Below, in pieces: positions 39,598 to 58,919 of a stretch of 64,000 nt of DNA; position 1 is the stretch's first letter; each line of letters starts with the position of its first letter. A program made the translations under genes and the position numbers. The notes beneath the pieces are model-generated. The model ran no database searches. It saw only the letters and a program-made list of their open reading frames with translations, and was not told the origin of the DNA. Source of the stretch: Nitrospirota bacterium (GTDB lineage Bacteria > Nitrospirota > Thermodesulfovibrionia > Thermodesulfovibrionales > UBA9159); assembly GCA_021790195.1 (NCBI GenBank), contig JAJYIF010000018.1:9446-73445 (forward strand), written 5' to 3'.

Positions 39598-40684
39598 CAT
39601 CCTTTCCGCGCTGTCGGCGGTCATTGTCGGTCTCATGTTCGGCTTCGTCTTGCAAAGAGGGCGGTTCTGTCTCAACTCCGCCTTCAGGGACATCATCTTC
39701 GTAAAGGACCTCACTTTCTTCAGGGCATATTTACTCTGCGTGGCTGTCGCGGTGATAGGGACGAATCTCCTGGATCATTTCGGACTCCTCAGGGCCTTCG
39801 ACGAAACTACGGGGCATTATGAGAAGGTCGAACTGATGCGCCAGAGCTTTCTCCCCCTCGCCAACGTCGTCGGCGGCTTCCTCTTCGGAATAGGGATAGT
39901 CCTTGCCGGGGGGTGCGCAAGCGGCATCGTTTACAGGGTAGGGGAGGGACAGGTTTCCACAATAACGGCTATTATAGGCTTTTTCATGGGTGTTGTAATG
40001 ACGACCCAGGGACTGCTGAGCCCCATATATACTTACCTTAAGAGCTTTACCGTCGCGGTAGGGGGCAAGACAAATCCTGCGATATGGGACCTCTTCGGCG
40101 GCGGTGAGACAGCGCGATGGATTACGATCGGCGTATTCTGTCTCGCCCTTCTAGTTATTGTGATGATGGGCAAGCCGTCCTTCGGGAAGAACTCGAAGGC
40201 CTTTTCCTGGGGCCTTACGGGTCTACTTATAGGACTGCTTACAGTGGCGGCGTGGGTCGCCTCTTCCTATTTCGGGGGCGTCCCGAGGGGGCTCGCCATT
40301 ACCACGCCTATCAGAGAGTTCTTCAACGCCGTCCTCTACAAGAGCTCTCACTCCCCCTTCCCGGAATTCAGCTTCCTGGGAATATTCACAGGCACATGGG
40401 GCGTATTTTTTATCTTTGCGGTCCCCTTCGGCGCCCTGATGAGCGCGATCGCCCTAAAAGAATTCAAATGGAAGATCCCACAGGCAAAGGAATTCCTTAC
40501 CGTTCTGTTCGGGAGCATACTGATGGGGGTGGGCTCGGTCATCGCCGGTGGCTGAAACGTCGGTCACGGGGTGACAGGTATGTCAACCATGGCTCTCTCA
40601 AGCTTAGTTGCGATAACTTCCATAGTTCTTGGTAACTGGACAATGGTTTATTTTAAGTTCATAAGACCCATGAATGCGGATTGA
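39584..40684 (+). CDS. YeeE/YedE-family (Sulf_transp) sulfur/selenium-compound transporter, read through in-frame TGA at 40553-40555 (candidate selenocysteine)
   Basis: FGFVLQRGRFCLNSAFRD, LAGGCASG, then VIAGG-TGA-NVGHGVTG; the frame continues 42 codons encoding the last TM helix; family call is strong, the read-through is inference. Confidence 0.6.
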
Positions 40685-40716: not shown

Positions 40717-41373
40717 CTATTCTATCTTTATTATCCCTCTGTGAATAGCGAACTTTATCAAACTGGCCCTGCTGCTGATGTCGAGCTTTTCGCTCAGGTT
40801 GGTCTGATGCGCTATGACGGTCTTCGTGCTTATCGAAAGCATATCCCCGATTTCCTTGTGCGTGTATCCTTCGGCAAGGAGTTTCAGGACCTGCTTTTCC
40901 CTGTCGGTGAGCTTGTCGTAGGGATCCTCCGCGGCCGCTCCCTTGTCTTTCCCAAGGTAGCCTGCGACTACGTTTGACGCGATCGAGGAAAAGAGGTAGA
41001 ACTCTCCATTGCTGACCGCCCTTATGGCGGAAATCAGGTCGCTTCCCACTGCCCGCTTGAGCAGGTATCCCAGGACCCCCGCCTTCAGAAAACGCGCTAT
41101 GTACTCCTTGTCGTCGTATTGAGTGAGCACAAGGATCTTTATGTCCGGGTTGATCTTTTTGAGCTCAACTGTCGCCTCCAGACCGCCGAGCTTCGGCATT
41201 GCTATGTCCATAAGGACGACATCGGGGTTGAATTTCTTGGATTTCTCTATTGCCTCAAGACCGTCGGACGCTTCGGCAATCACCTCTATGTCTTCGGTGA
41301 GCTTGAGGAACGCGACAATACCCTCCCTCACCAAGGCATGATCATCGGCGATAAGAACTCTTATCTTACGCAT
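40717..41373 (-). CDS. NarL/LuxR-family response regulator
   Basis: 218 aa; REC domain (IADDH...D) plus C-terminal LuxR HTH (LTDREKQVLKLLAEGYTHKEIGDMLSIS.KTV). Confidence 0.9.
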   Translation of the reverse strand: MRKIRVLIADDHALVREGIVAFLKLTEDIEVIAEASDGLEAIEKSKKFNPDVVLMDIAMPKLGGLEATVELKKINPDIKILVLTQYDDKEYIARFLKAGVLGYLLKRAVGSDLISAIRAVSNGEFYLFSSIASNVVAGYLGKDKGAAAEDPYDKLTDREKQVLKLLAEGYTHKEIGDMLSISTKTVIAHQTNLSEKLDISSRASLIKFAIHRGIIKIE

Positions 41374-43285
41374 CTGAAGCTACTCTTTGTTTAAAGGCGG
41401 AACAGTTATTTCGCCTTTCTTCGGGACAATCCATAATCTCCCAGCAGGGTTGTTCTTTAGTCGACGCCTCAGCGCCTGCTTCTTTAGTTCTTAGAGGGAT
41501 CGTCAAGCTGATCCATGTGCCGCTTCCAGGCAGGGAGCATATCTGCAATTCCCCGTCAAGGAGTGAAGTCCTCTCCTTCATTCCCATGAGCCCCAGCCCC
41601 CTGCCGTTGTCGGCCGAATATCGCAACATAGACTGGACGTCAAATCCCTTTCCGTCGTCCCGGATCTCGATATTGACGGCGCTGTCTCTAACCTTGAGCG
41701 CTATAAAAACATTCCCGGCCCCTGAGTGTCTTGCGATATTGATAACGGCCTCCTGTATGATCCTGAACAGCGTGATCTCGGCATGCGGGCTGAAACGCGC
41801 GTCCGTCTCGGCATCGACGGTCAATGAATATTGGATCCCTTTTTCTCCCAGGTGTTTGTCAAGAAGCCACTTGACCGCCGTCGCTAGGCCTAGGTCATCA
41901 AGTATGGCAGGCCTCATGTTCTGAATGACATTATGAATGCCGTCTATGGTTTTCAGTGTGATCCCCCTCATCTGTTCTATCTTTTCCCGGGTGATCTGCT
42001 CCGGATACAGCTTGCAGATATCGAGCTTTATGAGAAAAGCGGACAGGTCCTGCAGGATCTCATCATGGAGTCCCCTGGCTATCCTCTTCCTCTCATCCTC
42101 CTGTGAGGAAATGATACGTTTGAGAAGGCTTTCGACCTTCTGGCGGCTTTGCCGTATCTGCCCGGTTCTCTCTATGACCCGTTGCTCCAGCTCGATGTTA
42201 TGCCTCTGGATGCTCTCGAGAGACTCCGAGAGTTTCATCCTCATAATATCGAAACTCTTGCTGAGTTTCAATATCTCGTCGCTCCCCAGATTCCCAACTG
42301 GCACCGAGAGATCTCCGGATGCAATCTTATCCGCCGAAGTTATCAGGAACCTGAGCGGCCTGACTACGTTTATGCTCATCCCGACCGAAAAAAGGATTGA
42401 CGTGCCGATAAATATAATAACAAGAAGGAGGAATTTCTTTTTCAGGGCGATTGAAGGAGAAAAGATATCGTCCTCAGACTGCCCCACAACCACGCCCCAT
42501 TTGGCCAAAGTCAGAGGGACAACCGCGAGACGATCAAGCCTTTCTTCTCCGGAAGCGTCAAGCGAAGACACGCGCCCGCTTTCCACAATCCCGGACTCTC
42601 CTTTTCTTATCATGCTGCCCAGTTCGGCGCCATGGATATGGCGCCGAAGCGCGCGCGAAGGATTGGCCGAAGCCACCACTACATCATTCGAGTCGACGAT
42701 CTCTATGTAAATAGTCTTGTCGATCTTGGCGCTTTGCAGGATCTGATTAAAAAAACGGTCCGTCGGGCCCAGAATACCTCCGACAACGCCGACGATCCTG
42801 CCTTCGCTGTCCCTCAGCGGGGTCATCATGAATACTACCTTCTTCTTTATAGGCTCAATTGTATAGACATTGGATATCACGGGCCTTCCGTTCAGGAGCA
42901 CGTCATTGACGTAATCAATGTAAGTGAGATTAGAGAAATACTCTACATGAGGCGGATAAGTGAGCACCTCGTTGCCGTGTTTGTCAAGAAGGAATACTCC
43001 CTCAGTGAAAAGCGAATATTTGTACACGTTTTCGAGCATTCTTTTTTCGGTCTCCCGGTCGCCGTTCTTGAGGTTGATTTTCCCCGAGAGGGAGACGTCG
43101 TGGAGCCTGCTAAAATTATTGTTCAGAAAAACTTCGATGTAATTTGCGATAATCCTGGCAAGCGCGAGCCTGTTCTGCAGAGAGCGCTCGATGCTCTCAT
43201 GGATTGCTATCGAGCTTATAACCCCGAGTGTGGCCGTTATTATGATCACGTTAAGGATTATAGCGATTATTATCTTTCTCAGCAT
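41366..43285 (-). CDS. Sensor histidine kinase (HisKA_3/NarX type) with Cache-like periplasmic domain, HAMP and a C-terminal Cys/Trp motif
   Basis: 639 aa; H-box RIARGLHDEILQ; HATPase; C-terminal PCWEIMDCPEERRNNCSAF. Confidence 0.85.
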   Translation of the reverse strand: MLRKIIIAIILNVIIITATLGVISSIAIHESIERSLQNRLALARIIANYIEVFLNNNFSRLHDVSLSGKINLKNGDRETEKRMLENVYKYSLFTEGVFLLDKHGNEVLTYPPHVEYFSNLTYIDYVNDVLLNGRPVISNVYTIEPIKKKVVFMMTPLRDSEGRIVGVVGGILGPTDRFFNQILQSAKIDKTIYIEIVDSNDVVVASANPSRALRRHIHGAELGSMIRKGESGIVESGRVSSLDASGEERLDRLAVVPLTLAKWGVVVGQSEDDIFSPSIALKKKFLLLVIIFIGTSILFSVGMSINVVRPLRFLITSADKIASGDLSVPVGNLGSDEILKLSKSFDIMRMKLSESLESIQRHNIELEQRVIERTGQIRQSRQKVESLLKRIISSQEDERKRIARGLHDEILQDLSAFLIKLDICKLYPEQITREKIEQMRGITLKTIDGIHNVIQNMRPAILDDLGLATAVKWLLDKHLGEKGIQYSLTVDAETDARFSPHAEITLFRIIQEAVINIARHSGAGNVFIALKVRDSAVNIEIRDDGKGFDVQSMLRYSADNGRGLGLMGMKERTSLLDGELQICSLPGSGTWISLTIPLRTKEAGAEASTKEQPCWEIMDCPEERRNNCSAFKQRVASDA

Positions 43286-43352: not shown

Positions 43353-44066
43353 TCACCTGCGCTGCAACTCCCTATTCTTTGCACCCGCCTCGTTTTCCGG
43401 CTCCGCAAGCCGTCTCTCAAAGCGTTTCTTTTCGCTGTATCCAATGAATATGCTTTTGTCAAGGGGAAACACGTCCGGGCTGAACATGGAATCGTAGATA
43501 TGCCAGATGGCAACGAGGAGAAAAATCAGCATCGCCTCGTTCGTATGAACGACCTTTGAAGCCGGGATGAATTGTCCCGGGAAATATTTGGTCGCTGCCA
43601 CGGGGAACCAGAGAATGAAACCCGTGACGATCATCTGAATGCCTCCCAAGAGAATAAGCCAGTAAATAAACTTTTCCTTGTAGTTGTATCTGGCGCGCAC
43701 AGCCGGTCTATCGGCAATGCCTATGTAATATCTGACGTTATGCAGTGCGTCAACGAAATCGTTGAAGTTTACGAGCATGGAAGGCTCCCACTGTCTGTAG
43801 ACGATGCCCCAGAAATTCAAGAGGACGTGCTGCGCGACAAGAGCGGTGAAAAGCGCCCCTGCAAGGTGGTGAAGAAACCTTACGCTGTCGATGCCGCCTA
43901 GTACGGCGATAAGGGACTGTGAGACTCCCAGGGCATAAAACTTTTGGGAGAGCCCGGTCGCCGCCAGCGCCGCAAATAGCGCGATAAGCGCAATGTGCTC
44001 TATGATACGGTAAGCGCTGAACCTCCTGACATATTCTTTATCGCCCGACAGTTTGCCGTAAACCAT
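43353..44066 (-). CDS. Membrane b-type cytochrome (FdnI/HydC-like, Ni_hydr_CYTB family)
   Basis: 237 aa; four TM helices with conserved His (IIEHIALI, FLHHLAG, HTNEAML, AIWHIY). Confidence 0.7.
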   Translation of the reverse strand: MVYGKLSGDKEYVRRFSAYRIIEHIALIALFAALAATGLSQKFYALGVSQSLIAVLGGIDSVRFLHHLAGALFTALVAQHVLLNFWGIVYRQWEPSMLVNFNDFVDALHNVRYYIGIADRPAVRARYNYKEKFIYWLILLGGIQMIVTGFILWFPVAATKYFPGQFIPASKVVHTNEAMLIFLLVAIWHIYDSMFSPDVFPLDKSIFIGYSEKKRFERRLAEPENEAGAKNRELQRR

Positions 44067-44081
44067 AGCCTATCCTCCTCC

Positions 44082-45668
44082 TCACCTGCTTGCAAAGTAC
44101 CGCCATATGTCCAGAAAAACCTGGAACAACAGGCCGATCACCATCAGCGGCATCATGAGCTTGTAGAATTCTTCAACGATGAAAACCAGAGGAGCGACTC
44201 TAAGGCTCGGCTTATAATGAGACAGCCATGCATCAGGAAAGTTCTCGGTTGCGTTTGTATGGCATGTATGGCATCGTTTCCGGAGATTCTTCTTTATGGT
44301 AAGCAAGTCGGCGCCGGAAACATTAGTGATGCCGTGCGTTCCGTGGCAGTCGGTGCAGACCGCCATGGGACGATCCGCCCGGTAACGTTTCTGAGCTTCT
44401 TTCCTGTAAAGGCCGAGCGTCACGCCGTGAAAATCGGCGAGATAGCTCTTTACTACGTCGACAGACAGGCCGTATTTGCCCATGATCGCGGCGTTCGAAT
44501 GGCATTTGCTGCACAGGTCCGGTATATAATCGTGAAACTCCGATGATGAGGGATCTTTGATGCTGTGGGAAGAGTGGCAGTCAATGCAGATCGGGACGTC
44601 TTTGTTGTTCTCTTTGAACAGGGCGCTGCCGTGCACGCTCCTCGCATATATTTCGTAAATCCCGCTGTGGCAGGCTTTGCATTTCTGCACCACTGACAGT
44701 CTGCTCCTGCTGAGCGACAAGACCGCGTGCGACCCGTGGCAATCTATGCAGGTTGGCGCATCAAGCCTCCCCGAGTTGAGCATCGAATAATGTATGCTTT
44801 CGGATATCTTCGAATACTTGTCGAAATGGCACCGTTTGCAGATCTCGGCGGATGAAAGTCGGTAGGTTCGCTCAGAGCTGAACCGCCTGTCAGGGTGCTC
44901 CTGCGCCGAGAACCCGAAGTGGCAGTCGGAGCAGCCGACGTTTCTGTGGGGAGAATCTCGGAACTCGGCAACGTCGACGCGGATCGATCTGAATTCTCCG
45001 TTCCTGAAGCGCATACGGTTCTCAAAGGCATGGCAGCGCAGGCAGTAATTATCTTCAGACGTTGAAACGTTGCCGCCGGTGATACGGGCAACGGCATGGG
45101 CGCTGTGGCAATCGGTGCAAATGACCGCCTCTCCGGATCCTTCTTTTTTGAACAATGCCTCGTGGATGGCTCTGGACCTTATGACCCGGTCGGTATGGCA
45201 GTGGCGGCACCCGTGCGACTCTCTGATCCTGTACTGGAGTTTATTCCTGAAGGCGCGGTCCGGGTGGCTTAGGGCGGAGAAATCCACATGGCATGCGGTG
45301 CAGGGGAGCGACCTGTGGACCGACTTGTCAAGTGCCACGGAATCGACATAGGTCGAGACGAAGTCTCCATCAGGGAATTTCTTAACCGAGTTTTTTTCGC
45401 TATGACATCTAAGACATTGTCTCTTCTCTTCCCCTGCCGCTCTCTCCTGGGCGTAAGAGGGACGGGCATGAAGAACCAAACAAAAGATGAACACCACATA
45501 TAGTATACACTTCGCGGCTCTCACGCCGTCCCCCCTTTGTGATAAACGATATCGAGATCCAACTGCGGAGAACAGGAGTCCTTCTCCGAGAACACCCGCT
45601 TCTATCTTATCATCTTTCTCCATAAAAAATAATTTTGCAGGCGTGTCCGACATTCTCTCTCCCGTCAA
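44082..45668 (-). CDS. Multiheme c-type cytochrome, 13 CxxCH motifs, C-terminal TM helix
   Basis: Counted CLRCH, CTACH, CRHCH, CTDCH, CLRCH, CSDCH, CKRCH, CIDCH, CKACH, CIDCH, CSKCH, CTDCH, CHTCH; N-terminal hydrophobic segment; C-terminal MMPLMVIGLLFQVFL. Confidence 0.85.
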   Translation of the reverse strand: MTGERMSDTPAKLFFMEKDDKIEAGVLGEGLLFSAVGSRYRLSQRGDGVRAAKCILYVVFIFCLVLHARPSYAQERAAGEEKRQCLRCHSEKNSVKKFPDGDFVSTYVDSVALDKSVHRSLPCTACHVDFSALSHPDRAFRNKLQYRIRESHGCRHCHTDRVIRSRAIHEALFKKEGSGEAVICTDCHSAHAVARITGGNVSTSEDNYCLRCHAFENRMRFRNGEFRSIRVDVAEFRDSPHRNVGCSDCHFGFSAQEHPDRRFSSERTYRLSSAEICKRCHFDKYSKISESIHYSMLNSGRLDAPTCIDCHGSHAVLSLSRSRLSVVQKCKACHSGIYEIYARSVHGSALFKENNKDVPICIDCHSSHSIKDPSSSEFHDYIPDLCSKCHSNAAIMGKYGLSVDVVKSYLADFHGVTLGLYRKEAQKRYRADRPMAVCTDCHGTHGITNVSGADLLTIKKNLRKRCHTCHTNATENFPDAWLSHYKPSLRVAPLVFIVEEFYKLMMPLMVIGLLFQVFLDIWRYFASR

Positions 45669-46921
45669 TGCGTGCCTTCATATTCCGGCAGTTCGCGCGT
45701 TACAGGAAATCTGTTCAGTATCCACCTGAAAACGAGTATATGGAGCGTGACCATCGCCATGATCATCATAATCTCGGTCCCCGGCGGGATAATCCGGTGC
45801 AGATGTCCGGGCAAGTGCCAGTTGAAAGCGATCAGGTTGACGTTCACCCTGTTCAGCAGAATCCCGAACAGTGCAAACAGGGCGGAGAAACGTATCAGCT
45901 TCAGACTTTGAGATTTCACTCCTGCAGTGAACAAAACCATCGGCATTGCCACAAAACCGAGCAGCTCAACCAGGTACCAATAACCGTACGGAGTCGTCAG
46001 GAGTCCCCAGCGATCATCCTGTGCCAGGGCGAGCACCTTCAGGGCGAAGTAGACGTACATGGACAATGCGGCCCCTTTGCCTAAACTGAGGGTTAGCGAG
46101 GGCGTGCTCGATATGAACTTCGCGTCGCATTTGTCCCTGAAATAACGTACGGCCACGAAGGCAAGGAGAATCGCAAACGACATGGCGGCGTAGACCGCCG
46201 AGCTGAAAAACAACAGTGGAAGATGTGATGAGTACCATAAGGGGTGAAGCTTGCCCGGCGTCAGGAGATACATGGCGCCGAGGGCCGACTGGTGAACCGT
46301 AGAGAGGATAACCCCGCCGATAATCAGCGCTACTGTTGTGGAAACGGCCCATCTGTGAAGACGCCTCGATCCCAGCCACTCAAGGATGGCCGGAGAGAAC
46401 TCCAGAAGCTGCACAGTACAGTAAAGAGCTACGTGCCAGGCCACGATGAAGAGGACCGAAGACGGGCCGAGATTAACGAGCATCGGGTAATATATGCGCC
46501 ACGGCCGCCCCAGATCGATTAGCAGGTATGAGGCTGCGAAGGCGTACCCTAACATTCCGCCGAGCACGGCGAGACGCACCAGAGGCCTGTAAGACTTCAT
46601 GCCGAACAGGTAATAAGCCGCTGCCACGACAAAGCCCGCGGCGAACAGCGGCTCACCCGCGAAGATTCCCCAACTCAGGAGGAGTCCCCAGGGATATTCG
46701 CTGGTGGCGTCCATGACGCTCGCAAGTCCTCTTGTGTATCTCATTATGAACACGGGCGCTGAGGCGACAAGGATCGCAACGGCGGCCAGATTGAAAGGCG
46801 TCGCCAGAGAGCGGGCGTACTCGGATACGCTCATCCCCATGAACAGCTTATCCATGAACCAGTTGCGGAATTCCGCAGAAGACGCAGACGATTGAGCGGT
46901 GTATTGAATGCCGTTATCCAT
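45665..46921 (-). CDS. NrfD/PsrC/HmcC-type integral membrane quinone-interacting subunit
   Basis: Start chosen at MDNGIQY (AAGGAGGGG upstream); about 8-10 TM helices; sits next to a 4-cluster FeS subunit. Confidence 0.75.
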   Translation of the reverse strand: MDNGIQYTAQSSASSAEFRNWFMDKLFMGMSVSEYARSLATPFNLAAVAILVASAPVFIMRYTRGLASVMDATSEYPWGLLLSWGIFAGEPLFAAGFVVAAAYYLFGMKSYRPLVRLAVLGGMLGYAFAASYLLIDLGRPWRIYYPMLVNLGPSSVLFIVAWHVALYCTVQLLEFSPAILEWLGSRRLHRWAVSTTVALIIGGVILSTVHQSALGAMYLLTPGKLHPLWYSSHLPLLFFSSAVYAAMSFAILLAFVAVRYFRDKCDAKFISSTPSLTLSLGKGAALSMYVYFALKVLALAQDDRWGLLTTPYGYWYLVELLGFVAMPMVLFTAGVKSQSLKLIRFSALFALFGILLNRVNVNLIAFNWHLPGHLHRIIPPGTEIMMIMAMVTLHILVFRWILNRFPVTRELPEYEGTH

Positions 46922-47909
46922 TGTTCCCCTCCTTGTGCTGTCTTTCCGGTTCTGTCGGGTCGCCCTTGCGTGTTGCGGCATATATGAGACCGAAGATCGC
47001 AGGGAACGTCGTAAAGATCACCGGAACCGTGGACAGATAACCCTTTGTGAGCTCTATGAGCGGCTTCTTCGGGAGATTAGTCGGGAAGCCCAGTTGCTCG
47101 AAAGGCACGCCCGAGATATAGAGCCATGAAGTGCCCCCGACTTCGTGCTCGCCGTAGATGTGGCTTACATATTTATCGGGGTGCTCGGCGATTCTCTTCC
47201 GGGCAAGCTTCAGGAGATCCGCTCTCTTGCCGAAAGTGAGCGCGCCCGCCGGGCACGCTTCCGCGCAGCCGGGAAGTTGACCTTTCTTGATCCTGCCGTA
47301 ACAGAGAATGCACTTCATTATCTTGGGCTGCAGGGCGCTTTCATAGTCATAGCCAGGGATATTGAAGGGACACCCGATAACGCAGTAACGGCAGCCGAAA
47401 CAAAGCTTTTCATTATAAATGACCGGACCTTCTGGTGTTTTTGTATACGCATGGATGGGGCATGCCGTGGCGCACGCCGGCTCTAAACAGTGGTTGCACT
47501 GGATTTTCCGATAAACCGGCCTGCTAGGATCCCCAGGATTCTCATACCGGTTGACGACGGTGAGGGCTTTGGCATTGGGCCAGCGCCGCTCGTTGAAGAC
47601 TGAAGCGTCGTCAAAGGGTTTTTCGGGCGCCGGCATCCGATTGACTTCGTTGCACGCGCGTTCACAACTCCTGCAACCGACGCAAGCGGTGAAGTCCGTC
47701 AGCATCCCATAGCTTTTGGGCCAGCCCTCGAACTCGGGCGCGGCCCCGGCGCGGGCTGGGAGACCGAGCGCAGTGCAACCCGCCAGCATCGATATAGAAA
47801 GAAAGCTCCGCCTGGAGAGCCGGGCGGAACGCCCTGCGGCATCCTGCGCAGCGCCGCCACCGGGGTCCTCCGACCGGTTCTTCTTGATCTTGATCTTAAT
47901 CATAAGCAT
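46914..47909 (-). CDS. Tat-exported four-cluster [4Fe-4S] ferredoxin subunit (NrfC/PsrB/HmcB type)
   Basis: SRRSFLS twin-arginine motif; CVGCRSCERAC, CNHCLEPACATACP, CFGCRYCVIGCP, CILC...CAEACP. Confidence 0.85.
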   Translation of the reverse strand: MLMIKIKIKKNRSEDPGGGAAQDAAGRSARLSRRSFLSISMLAGCTALGLPARAGAAPEFEGWPKSYGMLTDFTACVGCRSCERACNEVNRMPAPEKPFDDASVFNERRWPNAKALTVVNRYENPGDPSRPVYRKIQCNHCLEPACATACPIHAYTKTPEGPVIYNEKLCFGCRYCVIGCPFNIPGYDYESALQPKIMKCILCYGRIKKGQLPGCAEACPAGALTFGKRADLLKLARKRIAEHPDKYVSHIYGEHEVGGTSWLYISGVPFEQLGFPTNLPKKPLIELTKGYLSTVPVIFTTFPAIFGLIYAATRKGDPTEPERQHKEGNNG

Positions 47910-47938
47910 GACCTCCTTATATTATCCGGCATTGTGCT

Positions 47939-48409
47939 TCATCTAGTCTGCGTGTGACATGTCTTGACGCATCCTTCCGGCGAGGAACCCAGTTCTCCGA
48001 CGCCGATGTGGCACTCGAAGCACTTTTTATGAAAAGCTACTTTCAGTCCAGGCATCTCCGGCGTATCGGGAGAATAGTCCGTATGGCATCCGCTGCACGG
48101 CAGAAAACCGTTTTTTACTGAAGCCTTGAATTGACCGGCGCTCAGCGAATGGCACTCGCCGCACATTGCCCTTGTCTTGTCGTTGTGCTGGTGATGACAC
48201 TTCCCGCAGCTGCCCGCCAGGGACACGTGCATCGAGTGGTCGAAAGTTACCGGGCCGTAGCGATTCTGAAGATACTTGATGATGATGACGCCGGGGGCGT
48301 CGGTTCCTTCAGCTCTCGCCGAAAAAACATCCGGGACCGTAATTATTCCGGCGGTTATCAGGATCGCGCAAACCAGAAGCAATAATGTTTTGACAGAGTG
48401 TCTTTTCAT
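47939..48409 (-). CDS. Small periplasmic class III (c3-type) multiheme cytochrome
   Basis: 156 aa; signal peptide; CGKCH, CGECH, CSGCH, CFECH plus CVKTCH (CxxxCH). Confidence 0.8.
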   Translation of the reverse strand: MKRHSVKTLLLLVCAILITAGIITVPDVFSARAEGTDAPGVIIIKYLQNRYGPVTFDHSMHVSLAGSCGKCHHQHNDKTRAMCGECHSLSAGQFKASVKNGFLPCSGCHTDYSPDTPEMPGLKVAFHKKCFECHIGVGELGSSPEGCVKTCHTQTR

Positions 48410-48443
48410 CTTTCTGCTGCCTCCTTTTGCGGGACTGTTATTC

Positions 48444-48836
48444 TTAAATTCGCTGCCCGGGTTCGCCGCCTTTTGCCTTCTTCATTTTTTTGCGGCCTGC
48501 GAAATAGGCTCGCACGGGACTCCAGCCTGCGGATGTCACGGTGGAGACCCCCTTGCTGAGAGGCACCGCCATCCCCTGGACAAAGAGGAACGGCAGGGCA
48601 GCGAGATAGAACACACCGAATACCGGGGCCAGCGCTATGTTACGGACCATCCGGGCGACCCTTTCTCTGCTCTGTGTTTTGAGGAACCCGGCGTCCTCTG
48701 CCGCGGATTTCAGTAGTCCCTGAAACGGTCTTGGCTTCAATATCTCGCAAAAGATGATAAAGCCGAGAACAGAAAGAAGCGCTATCCCATACTGCATTGC
48801 GTTGACGTTACTGACAAAGTCGAAAAGCGTGTGCAT
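48444..48836 (-). CDS. Small membrane protein, paralog family member P4
   Basis: 130 aa; TM helices; C-terminal GWSPVRAYFAGRKKMKKAKGGE shared with three upstream genes. Confidence 0.55.
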   Translation of the reverse strand: MHTLFDFVSNVNAMQYGIALLSVLGFIIFCEILKPRPFQGLLKSAAEDAGFLKTQSRERVARMVRNIALAPVFGVFYLAALPFLFVQGMAVPLSKGVSTVTSAGWSPVRAYFAGRKKMKKAKGGEPGQRI

Positions 48837-48901
48837 ACAGCACCTCCTTGTTTGTTATACACGGCCGCCGAGGACGGCCTGATATTGTGCTCCTTCCAGT
48901 C

Positions 48902-49276
48902 TCATTTCTTCCCGCGGCGCTTCCGCTTCTTCGAGTGTCCGGAGAAAAAAGAGATGGTGGGTTTGTACCTGAACCAAATGTGAGCAAGCGCGCTCCCCAC
49001 GAGTCTTTCGCATTGACAGCTCAGGAAGAACAGTATCCTGTAAAGCGCATACAGCAGGACAAAAATCACTGCGCCGATGCCGTAGGGAAAGGCCATGGAA
49101 AGCGCCAGAGCAAACAGGAACATAGGGATCAGGAGATAGCTTTCGGGGAGCTTGAAGTACCATTCCCTCCTGTCTCCCGGGAGGAAACCGTCAGCATTGA
49201 GAACAATCTTCTTGTTTTCGTTGGGTTCCCAATATGTCCCCTTCTTCACCTCTTGTTCGCCTCTAAAGAGAAACAT
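48902..49276 (-). CDS. Small membrane protein, paralog family member P3
   Basis: Start chosen at MFLFRGEQE (one nt after the P2 stop); KKGTYWEPNENKKIV..., FLFALALSMAFPYGIGAVIFV, WFRYKPTISFFSGHSKKRKRRGKK. Confidence 0.6.
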   Translation of the reverse strand: MFLFRGEQEVKKGTYWEPNENKKIVLNADGFLPGDRREWYFKLPESYLLIPMFLFALALSMAFPYGIGAVIFVLLYALYRILFFLSCQCERLVGSALAHIWFRYKPTISFFSGHSKKRKRRGKK

Positions 49277-49277
49277 A

Positions 49278-49724
49278 TCACACATCCTTTCTCCGCGCGG
49301 CCTGTGAGCTGGCTCTCTCACCCGTGATGCTCCGCGTTCCACGGCGGACGCTCTTCTTCCTCTTTTGTGATCCCGAGAAATTCGCCCTCGATGGGTTCCA
49401 ATTGAAGAACAGGCTTCCTCCGTCAAACCTGCTGCAAATCCTGATGCCGGTCATTGCGACGGCTGTGAGTCCTGCGATGAGGGGGACCAGCCATAAGATA
49501 AGAAACACGCCTATCCCGAAGAGCGGCAGGAACATCACGAACGTCATTCCGACGAGAGGCGCAAGGACGAGGAGGGCTGCTGGCGACATCTTCATGTAAC
49601 GTCGGTCCTCACCGCCCGGAAGTGCGCTGTCCTCAAGCACGTTGACCTGCCGGCCGTTCGCGGGATTCCAGTACGATCCCTTTCCTACGATCATGCCTCC
49701 CTTATAGATGATCATTTCCTTCAC
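49278..49724 (-). CDS. Small membrane protein, paralog family member P2
   Basis: 148 aa; GKGSYWNPANGRQV..., FLPLFGIGVFLILWLV, FNWNPSRANFSGSQKRKKSVRR. Confidence 0.6.
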   Translation of the reverse strand: MKEMIIYKGGMIVGKGSYWNPANGRQVNVLEDSALPGGEDRRYMKMSPAALLVLAPLVGMTFVMFLPLFGIGVFLILWLVPLIAGLTAVAMTGIRICSRFDGGSLFFNWNPSRANFSGSQKRKKSVRRGTRSITGERASSQAARRKDV

Positions 49725-49861
49725 TTCCTTTCATTGAATTTTCATATACCCCGCAGTCTCTGCTGCGGGAACCTTGCGTCATCGGGGTGCAGCGTGTTGA
49801 AGACCCCTGCCGACCCATGGGGTAAATACCCTGTCGTGTCGCACGAGCGAAGTGAGTTTGT

Positions 49862-50263
49862 TTATTCAACGTCGTTCCTGTTGACCTTCGTTTCCTGGCT
49901 CGCGGACTCTTCTCCTTTTCTCCTCTTCCTGACCTTCTTACCGGCCATGTAAGCCGTAGTGGGCGCATAACCGAAGGTAGCGCTCCTTCCGAGCATGTTC
50001 TTCACAAGGGTGAAACACATGAGTCCGGCCCCGCAAAGCGCTCCGACAAGAGCGATGAGCCAGACGAAGATCACGATCCCAAGCCCATAGGGGAATACTA
50101 CCGACAATGCCAGCGCGAAGAGAAAGAGGACAAAGAATGCGGTCCGTGTCCAGAGCCTTGACACCCTGTTTCGTGCGGACAGCCTTCCGCCCCTGTCGAG
50201 TTCGCCGCTGTCGGCAGATAATGCCGGCCCTTCTTCCATCGCCTTATGACCGTGTGCAACCAT
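49862..50263 (-). CDS. Small membrane protein, paralog family member P1
   Basis: 133 aa; FLFALALSVVFPYGLGIVIFVWLIAL, FGYAPTTAYMAGKKVRKRRKGEE. Confidence 0.6.
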   Translation of the reverse strand: MVAHGHKAMEEGPALSADSGELDRGGRLSARNRVSRLWTRTAFFVLFLFALALSVVFPYGLGIVIFVWLIALVGALCGAGLMCFTLVKNMLGRSATFGYAPTTAYMAGKKVRKRRKGEESASQETKVNRNDVE

Positions 50264-50407
50264 TGTCTGATCCTCCTTTCATTGTTCTTGATTGCAGCAT
50301 ATCAATTTTCAATGGGAATGATAATTGGAACTAATTCCTATATTGACGGGAAATCTTTCCTATTCGAATAAGGAAAATGTCCGGGCTAGCGAAAGGGGCG
50401 GGTGTCC

Positions 50408-50959
50408 TCAGCGGATCATGCTTTCCGCTATCTTAATGAGCTCAAAGGGGGAAGACATTAGAAGGATCGTGTGACGCAGATCCCCTTCATACCACGTTAT
50501 CCTGCTGCAAGGCAGTTTTACGTCGCATATGCCGACCTGCAGGACGGCGTTCCTGCCTTTCAACATGTACGGGATCTCCTCTTTCAATTCAGACAGCCTG
50601 ATTCTCTGAAGCTGCGTACCGCGGTCACGCAGGGAGGATTGGATCACGATTAACGCAGTTGCCTCGGCATCTTCGGCCCTGAATTCCATTACGACGGCAC
50701 TGAAGGGTTTCTTCTGCGCGACGATGAGGGATGGCGGCCAGGAAATGCCTTGCGGGAAATACGTGGGGACCAGGATGTTTTCGAACCCGAGGGAACGTTT
50801 TGCCTCCTCGATACTGTCGTATCGCCGGGCAAAGTCCTTCTGCGCCGGAGAGGGCAGGCGATTGGCAATGGCCAGAAGCGCTATCAACGCCCCTGCCATA
50901 ACGATGAACCAAAGAAGACCGCGCACCGTTTTGCCTGTCTTGCCTTCCCGCATTTTCAT
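50408..50959 (-). CDS. Membrane-anchored hypothetical protein (single N-terminal TM; possibly DUF4367-like)
   Basis: 183 aa; start abuts the M56 gene stop; N-terminal LLWFIVMAGALIALLAIA helix. Confidence 0.4.
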   Translation of the reverse strand: MKMREGKTGKTVRGLLWFIVMAGALIALLAIANRLPSPAQKDFARRYDSIEEAKRSLGFENILVPTYFPQGISWPPSLIVAQKKPFSAVVMEFRAEDAEATALIVIQSSLRDRGTQLQRIRLSELKEEIPYMLKGRNAVLQVGICDVKLPCSRITWYEGDLRHTILLMSSPFELIKIAESMIR

Positions 50960-51976
50960 TCACACGACAAAGTAATTTATGCCTACGATAAACGCCATGG
51001 TCACGAAATATTGCACACCCCATTGAAAGTCGATCGCTCGGCCGACTCTGATTCTTGTTGCCCTGCTTTTCATAAGGGCGTTGTGGCTGTGATGTTCGAT
51101 CGCCGCCGCGAGGCCTCGGATTGTCCCACGGCCCTCATCGGCGACATAATCCCCGGATTCAGGACGCAGCATATCGACAGCTTCAAAGAGGGCCTCGGGC
51201 TTGCCGGTTAGAGCTACTGCGATATCGTCGCACACCTTTTCTTCCTCATCGACCAGCTTTCTGAATTCTATCATGGCAACAGGATTGTAAAACATCATCG
51301 CCCTGAGGATGTATGCAAAGATAAGCACCGGTTTTCTGCTCCTCCGGATGTGGCCGATTTCATGGGCAAAGGCCGCCTGCAGATGGTCGTTGCTGAAAGA
51401 TTTTACCATTCCCGAGGAGACATATATCCTGGGTTTCAAGCCTGTGGAGGAAAAGAGCTCAAGGTCATCGTCGTCAAGTATTTCAACGGCGTCTTCGCGG
51501 AGAGGCAGGTCCTCAAGCGCTTTTGCCACTTTTGTGGTCAGGGCTTCGTCTGCATCCTCATGGGCCGGTCCGGCAGCCCCCCGTATCTGTTCGATCATAT
51601 TAAATGCTATAGGCACGAGTTCTTGAATAACGAAGACGGCGGTGGACAGCGCCAATATGACGGCAAACGCCGCAAATACTGGAATGCCGTCCCACAGCTC
51701 TAAGAGAAACCATTTATTGCTGTCCAGCAGAGTGTCCAGCCTGAAATACATCCCTCCTCTGCCGGGGAATAGCAGTTGATAGAGCGGAAAGGATACGACC
51801 GGCAAGAGGATGACCATGAAGCGAAACCTTTGCTTGACATGAGGCGTTTTCATGTCCCACGCGATGAGCGCACAGTCAACGAGAACAGAGGCAATTATTG
51901 AATGAAGCACGGTTTGAACAACATACATTCCCAAATACGAGGAAATGAAAGTATTCACATTCCAAAGCGTCTTCAT
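50960..51976 (-). CDS. M56 (BlaR1-like) membrane metallopeptidase
   Basis: Start chosen at MKTLWNV; TM helices; zinc motif AFAHEIGHIRR and downstream EEKVCDDIA. Confidence 0.65.
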   Translation of the reverse strand: MKTLWNVNTFISSYLGMYVVQTVLHSIIASVLVDCALIAWDMKTPHVKQRFRFMVILLPVVSFPLYQLLFPGRGGMYFRLDTLLDSNKWFLLELWDGIPVFAAFAVILALSTAVFVIQELVPIAFNMIEQIRGAAGPAHEDADEALTTKVAKALEDLPLREDAVEILDDDDLELFSSTGLKPRIYVSSGMVKSFSNDHLQAAFAHEIGHIRRSRKPVLIFAYILRAMMFYNPVAMIEFRKLVDEEEKVCDDIAVALTGKPEALFEAVDMLRPESGDYVADEGRGTIRGLAAAIEHHSHNALMKSRATRIRVGRAIDFQWGVQYFVTMAFIVGINYFVV

Positions 51977-52086
51977 AAACTTACCTAATAATAACAAATT
52001 TTTGCTGCGGAATATCTGTGGAAGATAAATATGAAGGAAAGCCCAAACAGGCAAAGGACTGCATCGTGCCCGGGAGGAGCAAAGAA

Positions 52087-52800
52087 TTAGGTCTTGGTCT
52101 TCAAAGTCCTCATCCTCGCGATCTCTTCGTGATAACCGTAGATGTGGGCGCCCGCGCTGTAGGCATACATCGGCCCGTCAGCCAGTCCGGCCTCGCTTGC
52201 AACGAGTTTCTTGAGGAGCTGAATCCCGCCGAGGTTTGTGGGAAAACCCGCCCACAGGTCCCACGAGCGGAAATAGCAGCTTACCGTGAGGATCAATTTC
52301 CCCTCTTTAGGGACTGCCTTGAAATCGAGGAGTCTTAAACACGGCGGATCGAGCTTTCCGTCGTTCCCGAAGCAGACGTCATGGTCCTCGGGCGTGCCGA
52401 TCTCCACTACCGCCTGATTGGTGAGAGGGGTTTTCTTCAGGGTCTCAATAACCCTCTCAAGCTGGGTGCCGCCTTTCGGCATGGGGTGGTGTATCCTGCT
52501 CGCATATTTGTAAGTTTCATTTTCGGCCAGGGTGGGGTCCATCAAATAATAGACAAAATAATCCTCTATATATTCCATGGTGGTGGGCGCAGGGATTCCG
52601 AGTCCGGGCGGCATCACCGGGACCATTTCTATGCCGGGGTATTCGATATACACGGCGATGCCGGTGTACTGCAGGCGATACTGCTCATTCTCGAAGGAGC
52701 CCTGCTGTATGTCCTGTGTATAGGCGTGATCGAAGAGGTTATATATTAATTGAAACCACGCGTCCGATATGGTCTTTGCATTTACACAAAACGGAACCAT
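52087..52800 (-). CDS. Divergent thymidylate-synthase-fold protein (archaeal-type ThyA-like)
   Basis: 237 aa; DPPCLRLLDF (nucleophile Cys region) and YFRSWDLWAGFPTNL (RSxD...G.P.N) motifs. Confidence 0.55.
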   Translation of the reverse strand: MVPFCVNAKTISDAWFQLIYNLFDHAYTQDIQQGSFENEQYRLQYTGIAVYIEYPGIEMVPVMPPGLGIPAPTTMEYIEDYFVYYLMDPTLAENETYKYASRIHHPMPKGGTQLERVIETLKKTPLTNQAVVEIGTPEDHDVCFGNDGKLDPPCLRLLDFKAVPKEGKLILTVSCYFRSWDLWAGFPTNLGGIQLLKKLVASEAGLADGPMYAYSAGAHIYGYHEEIARMRTLKTKT

Positions 52801-55722: not shown

Positions 55723-55898
55723 GTTAGCGAGATGAAGACATTTAAATAAGGGGGTGGTGGAGAGGTGATTGTTGCAGTAGCTGTCAACTCTGATCCGTAA
55801 TGTTTATTCAAAACAACAAATGATCTTGTCATTATCAATCTGAGTGTGTGTTTATTGTTGAATTTTTTATGACAAACCAACAGAAAGAGGAGGAAGAA

Positions 55899-58739
55899 AT
55901 GAAGCAATGTTCTGTTTCAGGCATTAAGCTTTTCGTGTTAGCAGTCTTGGTTCTTTCGGCTTTTTCTCTTATGTTAGGTTGTAGCGGTGACGCCGGCTCT
56001 ACGGGTCCCGCGGGTCCCGCAGGACCTTCTGGTCCAGCGGCGCCCACTACAGGAACTATTTCCGGGACCGTGACGACATCCACGGGTGTTGCCCTTGAAG
56101 GCATTCAGGTGAGCGCTTTCAGCAACAAGACGGTCTCAAAGGTCGCCTCAGACAGCGCTGAGAATTATAGGCAGGCTATGGCCCTTCAGGCGAGTGCTAC
56201 CCCGGTTGCAACGGCGACCACCGACAGCAGCGGTAACTACTCAATGAACAACGTGCCGCCGGGTAGTTGCACTATAAACTTTTTCGATCCTAACGGCCAT
56301 TTCACAATAGGGTCTATAAACAATGTTCAGGTGATAGCCGGCTCTTCGATCATAGCAAACGCCGGCATGGGAAGCGCAACGCCTGTGACCGAGTCGGCCG
56401 GCGGTCAGACTTCGGTCGCAGTGGCGAGCTCCGACAATGAAGTGGGATATGGCAACACGATATCTCTTACCGCATCCGCCACAAGTCCGATATCCGGAGC
56501 TACGTTGACTTATACATGGTCAGGGGCGACGCAAGGCAGCACTCCTACAACCGCTACCGCGACCATGCCTACCCTTGCCAAGGCTATGGGCGGCACTCCC
56601 GCGCCGTCAAACGACCCCGGAGGATATGTAGCTCCGCAGCCGATGGAAAACCGTTTCGGAGTGCTCCCTACGACCGCAGACACGCGCGGCACCGCAAGTC
56701 CTAATGTTACCGTGACCGACGGTATGGGCGGCTCGGTATCCGTCACAGTTACGCTCTACGCAACCGGCGTCCAGCCCGGGGTTATGGATGTCGCTATAGG
56801 CGTCCCCGTCTATCTCAACAGCGGTCACGACAGCGGTAATTCCTGGTCGATGACCGTTCCTACCGGCTCATCGGCGACCCTTTTCAACGCCAATACGCGG
56901 AACGCGTGGTTTAAGCCCGATATCACCGGCAAATATACGTTAACGGAAGGCTCCAACTCAATGGCTATATATGCCGGCAAATGGGTTGGAGTCATAGCAA
57001 ACGGCGGTTATGTTACAAAGACCGTCACGGCGGACGAGGTCGGGATATGGGCCGGCGCAGCAGGAACATATACCAACTGGCCTTTTGTCACGCCTGATTC
57101 AGGCTGCACGACATGCCATCTGAACAATGTTGTAGTCAACGGCCTGACGGCCGTCGATGAGTTCACGCCGTGGGCCCAGACCGCGCACGCCACGTTCTTC
57201 TCCCGCGGATTGGAAGGAATTACGTCTAATAACGGCACTTGTCTCACCTGCCACACCGTCGGCTACGATCTGTCGCCGAGCGCCGTCAATGACGGTTTCG
57301 ACGACATGGCCAAGTTCGAGAACTTCATCTATGCAAAGACTAGCACTACCAACCCTAACGCCTGGCAGAACATGCTGATCAAGGCCCCGAGGACCGCGAA
57401 GGTCTCGAATATACAGTGCGAGAACTGTCATGGTCCGCAGGACACCGGACCTAACGGCGCACATATCTCGGGGCTGTCCGGAGGGACCTCCGGCGCCGTC
57501 GGAGGAACAAGGGTCAACTATTCTGCGGAGGTATGCGCTACGTGTCACGCCTCCGGCACCGGACATCACTTCTATTCGGAGTGGGTTAATTCCATCAATC
57601 CGGAGTCTAGTTCGGCCAATAAGGGCCACTCCCATCTGGGGCAGATCGATGCCACCGGTTATAGCGGTCACGCACAGTCGACCAACGTCTCATGTTCGAG
57701 GTGCCACACGGCAGAGGGATTCACAGCATATGTTGACCAGCTTTCAGCCGGCAATCCGGCGGTGCTTCCTTCAGACGCCATCGTATGGACCAAGAACAAC
57801 GCGCATGTACAGACCTGCACAGGGTGTCATGACCCGCATGACGATACGAACCCGAACCAGCTGCGTCTGTATGATTCGATACCGATGACCATGGCCGGTT
57901 TCGGCGTATCCGGTATGGGGAAGGGAGCTGTTTGTGTGGCCTGTCATAATATCAGGAATGGTGTACAGTGCAACCTGCCTCTGACCTCTGTGGGCACATG
58001 TCCGAGCGGCGGCGTTCAGAGCGGCGCGCCTTTCCTTCACGAGGACAACGATCCTGTTGCTGCTACTTATATGGATACTCCTCATGACAACGCCTCCGCC
58101 GACGTCTTCATGGGCCGCAACGCCTTCTTTGTGAGCGGACTTCCGATGCTTTCGAAGCATGCCGCAGTCGAAGATACCTGCGTGGGCTGTCACATGACGA
58201 ACCAGCCGGCGACTCATCTGTCTCACGGAGCAACTGCTGTCAGCTCCCATCAATTCTATATTCTGGACTCGGACAGGAAGATGTCCACTATTCTTCCCGG
58301 ACGCCTTGGTCCGAATGGCGTCGCTTTCTGTGCGAACTGCCACAGCACCAGCGTTGACGGCGAGGCGCTGGTTACAACTGTCGAAAACAGTCTCGCGACT
58401 CTTGCGGATAAGATGGCGGCCAATCTTAAGTCCAGGGTATTAGGAACGACCATCTACGTCGGCAGTAGCCACACTGCGGTCGCGGTAAGCGACTCGACGG
58501 TCGTGACCTTGCCTGAAGACTCGACGAACTTCAGTTTCACTAACGGCTCGACAACGGTTTCAGGCGGTCTTTCTACCATAACCACCGATTCTGCCGGCAC
58601 TACGCTGGTGTTCAGTACGAACGACATATTGAAGAAGGGCCTGTGGAACTACATACTCATCTACAGAGACCAGAGCAAGGGCATCCACAACCCGACCTTT
58701 GTCAATACGGTTCTGAGCAATACGCTCGCTCAGTTCTGA
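55899..58739 (+). CDS. Large multiheme c-type cytochrome lipoprotein (9 CxxCH) with collagen-like linker and CarboxypepD_reg-like domain
   Basis: Start at ATG 55899 after AGAGGAGG; lipobox MLGC; GPAGPAGPSGP; TGTISGTVTT...SGNYSMNNVPPGSC; CTTCH, CLTCH, CENCH, CATCH, CSRCH, CTGCH, CVACH, CVGCH, CANCH. Confidence 0.8.
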   Translation: MKQCSVSGIKLFVLAVLVLSAFSLMLGCSGDAGSTGPAGPAGPSGPAAPTTGTISGTVTTSTGVALEGIQVSAFSNKTVSKVASDSAENYRQAMALQASATPVATATTDSSGNYSMNNVPPGSCTINFFDPNGHFTIGSINNVQVIAGSSIIANAGMGSATPVTESAGGQTSVAVASSDNEVGYGNTISLTASATSPISGATLTYTWSGATQGSTPTTATATMPTLAKAMGGTPAPSNDPGGYVAPQPMENRFGVLPTTADTRGTASPNVTVTDGMGGSVSVTVTLYATGVQPGVMDVAIGVPVYLNSGHDSGNSWSMTVPTGSSATLFNANTRNAWFKPDITGKYTLTEGSNSMAIYAGKWVGVIANGGYVTKTVTADEVGIWAGAAGTYTNWPFVTPDSGCTTCHLNNVVVNGLTAVDEFTPWAQTAHATFFSRGLEGITSNNGTCLTCHTVGYDLSPSAVNDGFDDMAKFENFIYAKTSTTNPNAWQNMLIKAPRTAKVSNIQCENCHGPQDTGPNGAHISGLSGGTSGAVGGTRVNYSAEVCATCHASGTGHHFYSEWVNSINPESSSANKGHSHLGQIDATGYSGHAQSTNVSCSRCHTAEGFTAYVDQLSAGNPAVLPSDAIVWTKNNAHVQTCTGCHDPHDDTNPNQLRLYDSIPMTMAGFGVSGMGKGAVCVACHNIRNGVQCNLPLTSVGTCPSGGVQSGAPFLHEDNDPVAATYMDTPHDNASADVFMGRNAFFVSGLPMLSKHAAVEDTCVGCHMTNQPATHLSHGATAVSSHQFYILDSDRKMSTILPGRLGPNGVAFCANCHSTSVDGEALVTTVENSLATLADKMAANLKSRVLGTTIYVGSSHTAVAVSDSTVVTLPEDSTNFSFTNGSTTVSGGLSTITTDSAGTTLVFSTNDILKKGLWNYILIYRDQSKGIHNPTFVNTVLSNTLAQF

Positions 58740-58767
58740 CAGTGGGCCGTAGTTTGTAATCTCGTCC

Positions 58768-58805
58768 GGTTTACCGGCGGACACTGACAAGTCCGCCGGT
58801 AAACC
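58768..58805 (+). terminator. Strong hairpin after the large cytochrome gene
   Basis: GGTTTACCGGCGGAC-actgacaa-GTCCGCCGGTAAACC (15-bp perfect stem) followed by tgttctgctg. Confidence 0.6.
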
Positions 58806-58869
58806 TGTTCTGCTGTAGGAGGAGCATTTGCCGCTCCTTCGAATCGATCTAAACGCTTGACAAAAATTC

Positions 58870-58898
58870 TTGACAGCGAAGACGATTGTCCATATACT
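58870..58898 (+). promoter_or_regulatory. Near-consensus sigma70 promoter for the beta-barrel and periplasmic cytochrome genes
   Basis: TTGACA (58870-58875), 17 bp, TATACT (58893-58898). Confidence 0.55.
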
Positions 58899-58919
58899 TT
58901 TTGCTATGTTGTACATTTG

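Follow-up and report, generated by a model that had tools for sequence, protein, structure and literature searches.

Four small membrane proteins heading an Hmc-like multihaem cytochrome operon in a Nitrospirota genome are candidate accessory subunits, one of them with a putative HmcD-type helix

A redox operon on contig JAJYIF010000018.1 of a Nitrospirota bacterium (assembly GCA_021790195.1, positions 9,446 to 73,445) begins with an array of four small membrane-protein genes, named here P1 to P4, and the locus raises the question of what these proteins are and whether they belong to the cytochrome complex encoded behind them. The window, meaning the whole stretch of 64,000 nucleotides (nt) that was analysed, was screened through its 829 open reading frames (ORFs). 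The answer favoured here, which we hold with confidence evenly balanced, is that P1–P4 are cofactor-free integral-membrane accessory subunits of an Hmc-like/CbcL-like quinone-linked multihaem cytochrome complex. We infer an accessory, assembly or scaffold role from gene synteny, a conserved promoter, purifying selection and natural gene fusions. The four genes are as follows (aa, amino acids; TM, transmembrane).

49862..50263, minus strand: P1, family member of 133 aa, with predicted hairpin FLFALALSVVFPYGLGIVIFV, C-terminal ATFGYAPTTAYMAGKK followed by an acidic/Ser tail, and a diverged N-terminal domain.
49278..49715, minus strand: P2, family member of 145 aa, with a G-S-Y-W...LPG beta domain, predicted hairpin FLPLFGIGVFLILW, and FFNWNPSRANFSG followed by a basic tail.
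48902..49276, minus strand: P3, family member of 124 aa, with a G-T-Y-W...LPG beta domain, a predicted hairpin and WFRYKPTISFFSGHSKKRKRRGKK.
48444..48836, minus strand: P4, putative chimera of 130 aa, with an HmcD-like N-terminal TM helix (MHTLFDF...LKPRPF), a cytoplasmic helix, the family hydrophobic segment and the GWSPVRAYFAGRKK motif.

Analysis of the gene calls showed that the four minus-strand ORFs were present at the coordinates given by a first-pass annotation of this DNA, that its spacings were correct (P2 and P3 lie 1 nt apart, and P4 lies 34 nt from the gene for a c3-type cytochrome), and that every motif it quoted was found in the translations. A GGAGG-type ribosome-binding site was located 6–9 nt 5' of an ATG for each ORF. 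The length of P2 required a change: the 148 aa given earlier start at a GTG at 49724 that does appear in the ORF list, whereas the ATG at 49715, giving 145 aa, is likelier because orthologue N-termini agree with it (P2 then begins MIIYKGG, and the orthologues begin MIIxxGG or MVIYKGG). P1–P4 are real genes under purifying selection. The ratio of nonsynonymous to synonymous substitution rates (dN/dS) was 0.07–0.23 for the P1–P3 family and the P4 family alike, measured on orthologous pairs with unsaturated synonymous divergence, and not near 1, a value that the first-pass annotation would have taken as evidence against its reading. Two plus-strand ORFs lying over the array (48276–48716 and 48848–49327) were judged to be antisense artefacts, given the conservation and low dN/dS of the minus-strand frames.

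Pairwise blastp aligned P1 with P3 (1e-16), P2 with P3 (9e-16) and P1 with P2 (3e-8) over most of their length, while P4 aligned with P1–P3 in its C-terminal part only. A profile built from distant relatives only, with no window sequences (A6), retrieved exactly P1–P4 among the ORFs of the window and nothing else, which indicates that the resemblance is real homology and not compositional chance. P4 matched this profile at E 1.2e-7 over residues 73–129, corresponding to the hydrophobic segment LAPVFGVFYLAALPF and the GWSPVRAYFAGRKK motif; a value of E 3e-7 was also obtained for these residues against the family profile. The four paralogues described earlier are clear for P1, P2 and P3 and partial for P4, which shares the second hydrophobic segment and the C-terminal motif only. 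All four proteins have a hydrophobic segment whose centre is a Pro/Gly turn (FLPF-G-I or FPYG-G); the motifs of the previously reported TM hairpin are present, and its topology is a prediction. The shared C-terminal signature (aromatic-x-P-x-x-A/S-Y/F-F/M/L-x-G, then a Lys/Arg cluster) was likewise confirmed in all four, with N instead of Y/F at one position in P2 and in the form aromatic-x-P-x-x-A-Y-F/M-x-G-K-K in P4. The G-x-Y-W...LPG motif reported for P2 and P3 was recovered in both as part of an N-terminal beta domain of about 45 aa (G-G-x-x-V-x-x-G-x-Y-W ... L-P-G ... Y-x-K/R-x-P). P1 has lost this motif, which most relatives also carry, and in P4 an HmcD-like helix replaces the beta domain.

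Scans of Pfam-A and NCBIfam gave no match for P1, P2, P3 or P4, nor for ten distant relatives, and the precomputed Pfam column (newer accessions included) was empty for all listed P1–P3 homologues. The earlier statement that no family could be recognised was right for P1–P3 and overlooked the putative HmcD lineage of the P4 N-terminus. P1–P3 belong to an unannotated family, for which neither structure nor sequence gave a relative of known function. When 1.84 billion representative proteins were searched with a profile, 312 clusters at 50% identity were returned (E ≤ 1e-3), and a degenerate-pattern scan gave more than 565 confirmed metagenome stretches. Named source organisms were mostly Nitrospirota (Thermodesulfovibrionia, Dissulfurispiraceae), and single metagenome-assembled genomes (MAGs) labelled Deltaproteobacteria, Gemmatimonadota and Nitrospinae also carried the family. 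The consensus of the wider family has three parts, namely M..YKGG..V.KGTYWN...G.RV.....G.LPG.....Y.K.P, a hydrophobic stretch of about 30 residues (GP..GL.Y..FLPF.GI) and SFGWRP.EAYLAGKKK. No Cys, His or Met was conserved in the family alignments, and the invariant or nearly invariant columns held no Cys or His; cofactor binding by haem or iron-sulfur (FeS) ligation was rejected on this basis, and the lack of conserved Cys and His points to a structural or assembly role.

An AlphaFold2 model of P3 (32-sequence alignment; predicted local distance difference test, pLDDT, 73) showed a predicted four-stranded beta domain at residues 6–46 (pLDDT about 80–85), a helix at 48–65, a tight FPYGIG turn, a long helix at 70–104 and a disordered C-terminal motif. 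Foldseek comparison of this model with the PDB returned nothing at E ≤ 0.001 (best 0.22), and PDB sequence searches with profile A6 and with the X183 and M56 proteins encoded upstream of the array gave no match. A C-terminal sorting signal (PEP-CTERM, LPXTG or sortase type) was rejected, since it needs a motif followed by a TM helix and then a basic tail; in these proteins the motif lies behind the hydrophobic segment and is followed directly by the basic cluster. Dissulfurispiraceae include magnetotactic bacteria (PMC9376291), and magnetosome proteins were considered and provisionally rejected, as the family sits with cytochrome operons in many MAGs and no mam-type domains were found among the neighbours examined. 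The window is also ordinary chromosome, which disfavours a magnetosome reading as well.

P4 has 116 close homologues (50–68% identity) that share a near-invariant N-terminus, MHTLFDF..N..Y...L...GFI.F.E.LKP.PF. A weak precomputed Pfam match to PF28260 ('DVU_0533') was present on a distant member (P0235) and on the P4-like gene of one related locus (L109). DVU_0533 is HmcD of the Desulfovibrio Hmc complex, a small hydrophobic membrane peptide with no cofactor motif and no function assigned (PMC10924467). The NCBIfam model NF045712 (sulf_resp_HmcD; 38 positions, cut-off 34 bits) matched P4-like N-terminal helices from related loci with a best E of 1.6e-8 (34.3 bits) and others at 2e-6, 3e-6 and 4e-5, and 6 of 31 P4-family members were matched at E ≤ 1. 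P4 reached P0235 at E 3e-25, and its HmcD assignment is made by transitivity because the P4 of the window is too diverged for a direct match. The C-terminal half of P4-like proteins reads AAPFIGLAYVVALPF...SFGWRPxEAYLxGKKK, the same module as in the P1–P3 family.

To judge from these sequence matches, P4 is a predicted fusion of an HmcD-type helix, identified by transitivity, to the C-terminal module of the family, and putatively a larger form of HmcD not described before. Both are small membrane proteins that lack a cofactor motif and an assigned function, and both are encoded in an operon with HmcB-type and HmcC-type genes. It differs from the single-helix peptide of about 40–50 aa typical of HmcD in having 130 aa (against the 38-position model) and three further predicted helices with a basic tail. 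The additional parts are a helix in the cytoplasm, a further hydrophobic segment and the basic motif at the C-terminus. Its gene also sits before the cytochrome genes, whereas hmcD follows hmcC. The HmcD lineage would on this evidence reach into Nitrospirota as a larger chimeric protein. Nothing specific was found in the literature on HmcD function or on this cluster in Nitrospirota, and a paper on the MccSep selenoprotein proved unrelated.

Whether the array belongs to the operon was addressed through its neighbourhood, which in the window consists of the following features.

50960..52054, minus strand: M56/M48-type membrane zinc peptidase of 364 aa, with a HEIGH motif and without a BlaR1-type sensor domain.
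50408..50959, minus strand: X183, 183 aa, with an N-terminal TM helix and a domain of about 150 aa with two Cys.
50296..50375, minus strand: conserved regulatory region upstream of P1, with a palindrome, two dyad units and a -10-like element.
47939..48409, minus strand: tetrahaem c3-type cytochrome with 4 CXXCH, resembling TmcA and the HmcA C-terminus.
46914..47909, minus strand: HmcB-like periplasmic 4Fe-4S protein with an RRSFL Tat motif.
45665..46981, minus strand: HmcC-like NrfD-family membrane subunit, the true start probably being an internal Met near 46921.
44082..45668, minus strand: multihaem cytochrome c (13 CXXCH) that carries a signal peptide and is anchored by a C-terminal TM segment.
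43353..44066, minus strand: FdnI/HydC-type cytochrome b (PF01292).
41366..43285, minus strand: sensor histidine kinase (dCache-HAMP-HisKA_3-HATPase).
40717..41373, minus strand: NarL/LuxR-type response regulator (REC-GerE).

Gene order was compared at 18 GTDB species-level loci (all Nitrospirota by title where a phylum was named) and on further contigs. The conserved order was M56, X183, two to six small proteins, tetrahaem c3, HmcB-like, HmcC-like, a multihaem cytochrome of about 500 aa and PF01292 cytochrome b, continuing with the dCache/HAMP/HisKA_3 kinase and the NarL-type regulator. The cytochrome and HmcBC genes followed the array in every species-level locus with downstream sequence (16/16), and the M56 and X183 genes, a pair missed by the first-pass annotation, lay directly upstream of the first family gene in 16 of the 17 with upstream sequence. 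The same c3-HmcB-HmcC-multihaem arrangement was found in MAG loci labelled 'Deltaproteobacteria' and 'Gemmatimonadota'. The commonest short array contained a P1-like, a P2-like and a P4-like gene; L018 had only two array genes and no P4-like one, while up to five or six were found in Dissulfurispiraceae, against four in the window. Paralogue types held their order across arrays, which points to distinct, non-redundant roles, for example in a hetero-oligomer.

A simpler cluster (L063, L082, L094) contained M56, X183, one family gene, the multihaem cytochrome, cytochrome b, kinase and regulator, without P4, c3 or HmcBC, and three partial contigs (L086, L095, L105) held parts of this arrangement. 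A family gene with multihaem cytochrome and cytochrome b and no adjacent kinase was found in L113 and in the first cluster of L035, and a family gene with a P4-like gene alone in L099 and L106. P4 (HmcD type) tracks the c3/HmcB/HmcC module, and the P1–P3 type tracks the pair of multihaem cytochrome and cytochrome b.

Natural fusions join the family to the same partners. In one protein of 594 aa (P0532, present in both JGI and ENA), the N-domain and hydrophobic helix of the family are followed by a multihaem cytochrome and a C-terminal TM helix with a basic tail. In locus L035 (8498–10279), three near-identical tandem family genes are followed by a 593-aa cytochrome whose membrane anchor, LIVGPVFGLVYMLYMP, is family-like, and the 13-haem cytochrome of the window also ends in a C-terminal TM helix. 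The P4 chimera and the cytochrome fusion are putatively two independent Rosetta-stone links from the family to complex components. The full family repeat occurs twice within a single chain in P0292, P0302, P0303, P0319 and P0367, and a C-terminal LE.LE.EI..RR coiled-coil extension in P0313, P0378 and P0511 (one of them from a Nitrospinae MAG); these tandem-fused duplicates and coiled-coil variants suggest oligomerisation. P0353, like P0532, has the family N-domain and helix fused to a multihaem cytochrome of about 590 aa ending in a TM helix and basic tail.

The 144-nt spacer between X183 and P1 contained a palindrome, TTCCTTATTCGAATAGGAA (50375–50357, minus strand), and two TAGGAA-N(4-6)-TTCC dyad units at 50362–50349 and 50340–50323, the second ending in TTCCAATT. 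About 25 nt past the second unit lay a -10-like element, TTGATATGCT (50305–50296; general form TGnTAnGCT), followed by a ribosome-binding site. Both cluster types have this architecture ahead of their first family gene (L003, L005, L009, L012, L016, L021, L026, L063, L082, L094, L107, L109 and L113). A consensus promoter/terminator scan was not above shuffled expectation. The earlier description of the array as leading the redox operon appears apt, since the conserved operator and promoter upstream of P1 would make the array the start of a regulated transcription unit. M56 and X183 lie before this operator and promoter and are therefore probably a separate transcription unit, and the dyad region is probably the binding site of the NarL-type regulator of the operon. 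The operator/promoter, the two-component system and the M56 protease make the locus useful for studying operon control in uncultured Thermodesulfovibrionia. Taken with the synteny, dN/dS and two natural fusions, the promoter strongly supports the link to the redox operon proposed in the first-pass annotation.

The spacer between P1 and P2 (49716–49861, minus strand) was unusually long and more stable than shuffled controls (minimum free energy −48.1 kcal/mol, z −2.4). It contained a hairpin stem at 49750–49769 (CCCGCAG/CTGCGGG) with no U-tract, and spacer lengths were not conserved across other loci. Rfam gave no match within 47800–52200.

As accessory subunits, the proteins would each insert as a helical hairpin with N-in/C-in orientation and both ends cytoplasmic, because the termini are positively charged on both sides and because homologous N-domains of the tandem fusions should share a membrane side. 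The order-conserved paralogues may assemble into a hetero-oligomeric helix bundle, and this bundle would pack against the membrane-embedded parts of the complex, which are HmcC, cytochrome b and the anchors at the tails of HmcB and of the multihaem cytochrome. The aromatic-x-P-x-x-A-Y-F/M-x-G-K-K motif could act as an interfacial hook on the cytoplasmic face, and the role would be one of assembly, stabilisation or oligomerisation, not electron transfer.

Known complexes offer three comparisons. The Hmc complex of sulfate reducers (HmcABCDEF) likewise has a multihaem cytochrome in the periplasm, an FeS protein exported by the Tat pathway, a membrane subunit of the NrfD type, a short hydrophobic peptide and a cytochrome b in the membrane. 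The present cluster differs in that the 16-haem HmcA is absent and separate 4-haem and 13-haem cytochromes are encoded, the cytochrome b is FdnI/HydC-type (PF01292) and not NarI-type HmcE, and the operon has no gene like that for the cytoplasmic HmcF. The HmcB and HmcC homologues scored 402.6 against an equivalog cut-off of 420 and 388 against 550, respectively, and the cluster has in addition the small-protein array, the M56–X183 pair and a two-component system of its own. In CbcL of Geobacter sulfurreducens, a multihaem c domain is joined in one chain to a dihaem cytochrome b of the HydC/FdnI type. By module make-up alone, the minimal partner of the family, a multihaem cytochrome c with a PF01292 cytochrome b, resembles a split form of CbcL, two polypeptides here against one there; to our knowledge, no small-protein partner of CbcL has been described. 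CydX (cytochrome bd), CcoQ (cbb3 oxidase) and PetG/L/M/N (b6f) are short cofactor-free membrane peptides encoded in the operon of the complex they stabilise. P1–P4 are also short, cofactor-free and encoded within the operon of the complex, but they have no sequence relationship to these peptides and differ in their length of 124–145 aa, cytoplasmic beta domain, basic C-terminal motif and two to six tandem paralogues.

Several observations weigh against the accessory-subunit proposal. Many distant homologues are singletons in unrelated contexts, some of them (L028, L061, L093, L111) directly upstream of a GATase-glnB (PII)-glnA block with no cytochrome genes nearby, which indicates that the family is not obligatorily tied to cytochromes. 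The possibility raised earlier that homologues lie mostly away from redox operons applies in part to the wider family, with its many singletons. One cluster pairs M56 and X183 with a multihaem cytochrome and has no family gene. The P4 of the window gave no NF045712 match, either at full length or with its N-terminal 50 aa. The hairpin topology is tentative, as the hydrophobic stretch is about 30 residues in the wider family and must be single-span in the cytochrome fusion, and the structure models are only of moderate confidence (pLDDT 73 and 67) and without structural relatives.

The main rival, a generic membrane role and kinase modulation being less likely, starts from the genes upstream of the array. 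P1–P4 would here be substrates or regulatory partners of M56–X183, acting as a split BlaR1-like sensor-protease, and cleavage at or near the C-terminal motif would set their abundance and through it the assembly or expression of the complex. The M56–X183 adjacency is nearly as conserved as the cytochrome link, being present at 16 of the 17 species-level loci with upstream sequence as well as in the simpler clusters, and X183, which matched no known family, always follows the M56 gene. Locus L113 retains a remnant at 3236–4097, where a 96-aa ORF, possibly a vestige of M56, and an intact X183 homologue lie about 3 kb upstream of the family gene with HEAT-repeat and PIN-like genes inserted between. 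The upstream gene resembles BlaR1/MecR1 in its M56 domain (PF05569, 41.5 bits against a cut-off of 31) with an intact HExxH, present as HEIGH. It differs in that the 364-aa protein has no C-terminal penicillin-binding sensor domain, no BlaI/MecI (Penicillinase_R) repressor gene was found among the neighbours, and it is paired with a separate membrane-anchored protein, X183; the lack of such a repressor nearby leaves the M56 protease without an obvious canonical substrate. M56/M48 active sites face the cytoplasmic membrane surface (BlaR1, Ste24), which is the predicted side of the conserved C-terminal motif. Against this, the motif is equally conserved where M56 and X183 are missing in cis (L020, the first L035 cluster and the singletons), the M56–X183–cytochrome cluster exists without a family gene, and the pair probably belongs to its own transcription unit. 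This partnership was considered unlikely.

The two ideas can be combined. The family would then be an unrecognised class of hairpin subunits in the membrane core of Hmc/CbcL-type complexes of Nitrospirota and neighbours, with abundance or assembly set proteolytically by a split BlaR1-like M56 and X183 sensor. We regard this as a speculative and rather remote prospect; if true, it would describe a protease-gated respiratory complex in which the conserved C-terminal motif is the recognition site.

It is also improbable that P1–P4 are general-purpose small membrane proteins, concerned with membrane organisation or stress and duplicated beside the operon with no specific role in it. The many singletons of the wider family in unrelated neighbourhoods are consistent with this, as are the lack of cofactor ligands and of structural or sequence relatives of known function. 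However, lineages so far apart that the more divergent pairs are saturated or nearly saturated at synonymous sites keep the position, the order and the promoter shared with the cytochromes, and two independent fusions to complex components are found.

Modulation of the sensor kinase of the cluster by feedback, as in MgrB-PhoQ or MzrA-EnvZ, was judged very unlikely: small kinase feedback regulators are typically the first output of their regulon, and the array is indeed the first product of the dyad-operator promoter in an operon ending with the dCache/HAMP kinase and NarL-type regulator, but such modulators would not be expected to come as three to six distinct paralogues in a conserved order in each array, L113 has a family gene, multihaem cytochrome and cytochrome b with no adjacent kinase, and the fusions join HmcD and a cytochrome, not a kinase.

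In anaerobes responsible for the cycling of sulfur and metals, complexes of the Hmc, Tmc, Qrc and CbcL types move electrons between the quinone pool and the periplasm or the space outside the cell, and their small hydrophobic subunits, HmcD included, have never been given a function. A sizeable unannotated family that travels with these complexes provides candidate missing subunits for structural work.

Other genes were observed around the operon. A second cytochrome set at 55848–61635 (plus strand) contained a multihaem protein of 963 aa in which MtrC/MtrF-like and CarboxypepD_reg domains were recognised, a protein of 470 aa without a Pfam match, an ORF of 148 aa and a protein of 314 aa whose match to an MtrC/F-like domain was weak and below threshold; this set may form an outer module for extracellular electron transfer that works with the inner-membrane complex. 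Just past the response regulator lay a YeeE/YedE-type sulfur-transport gene (39584–40555, plus strand), and a thymidylate-synthase-like gene (52087–52800, minus strand) preceded the M56 gene by 32 nt in the same orientation, neither of them conserved in related loci.

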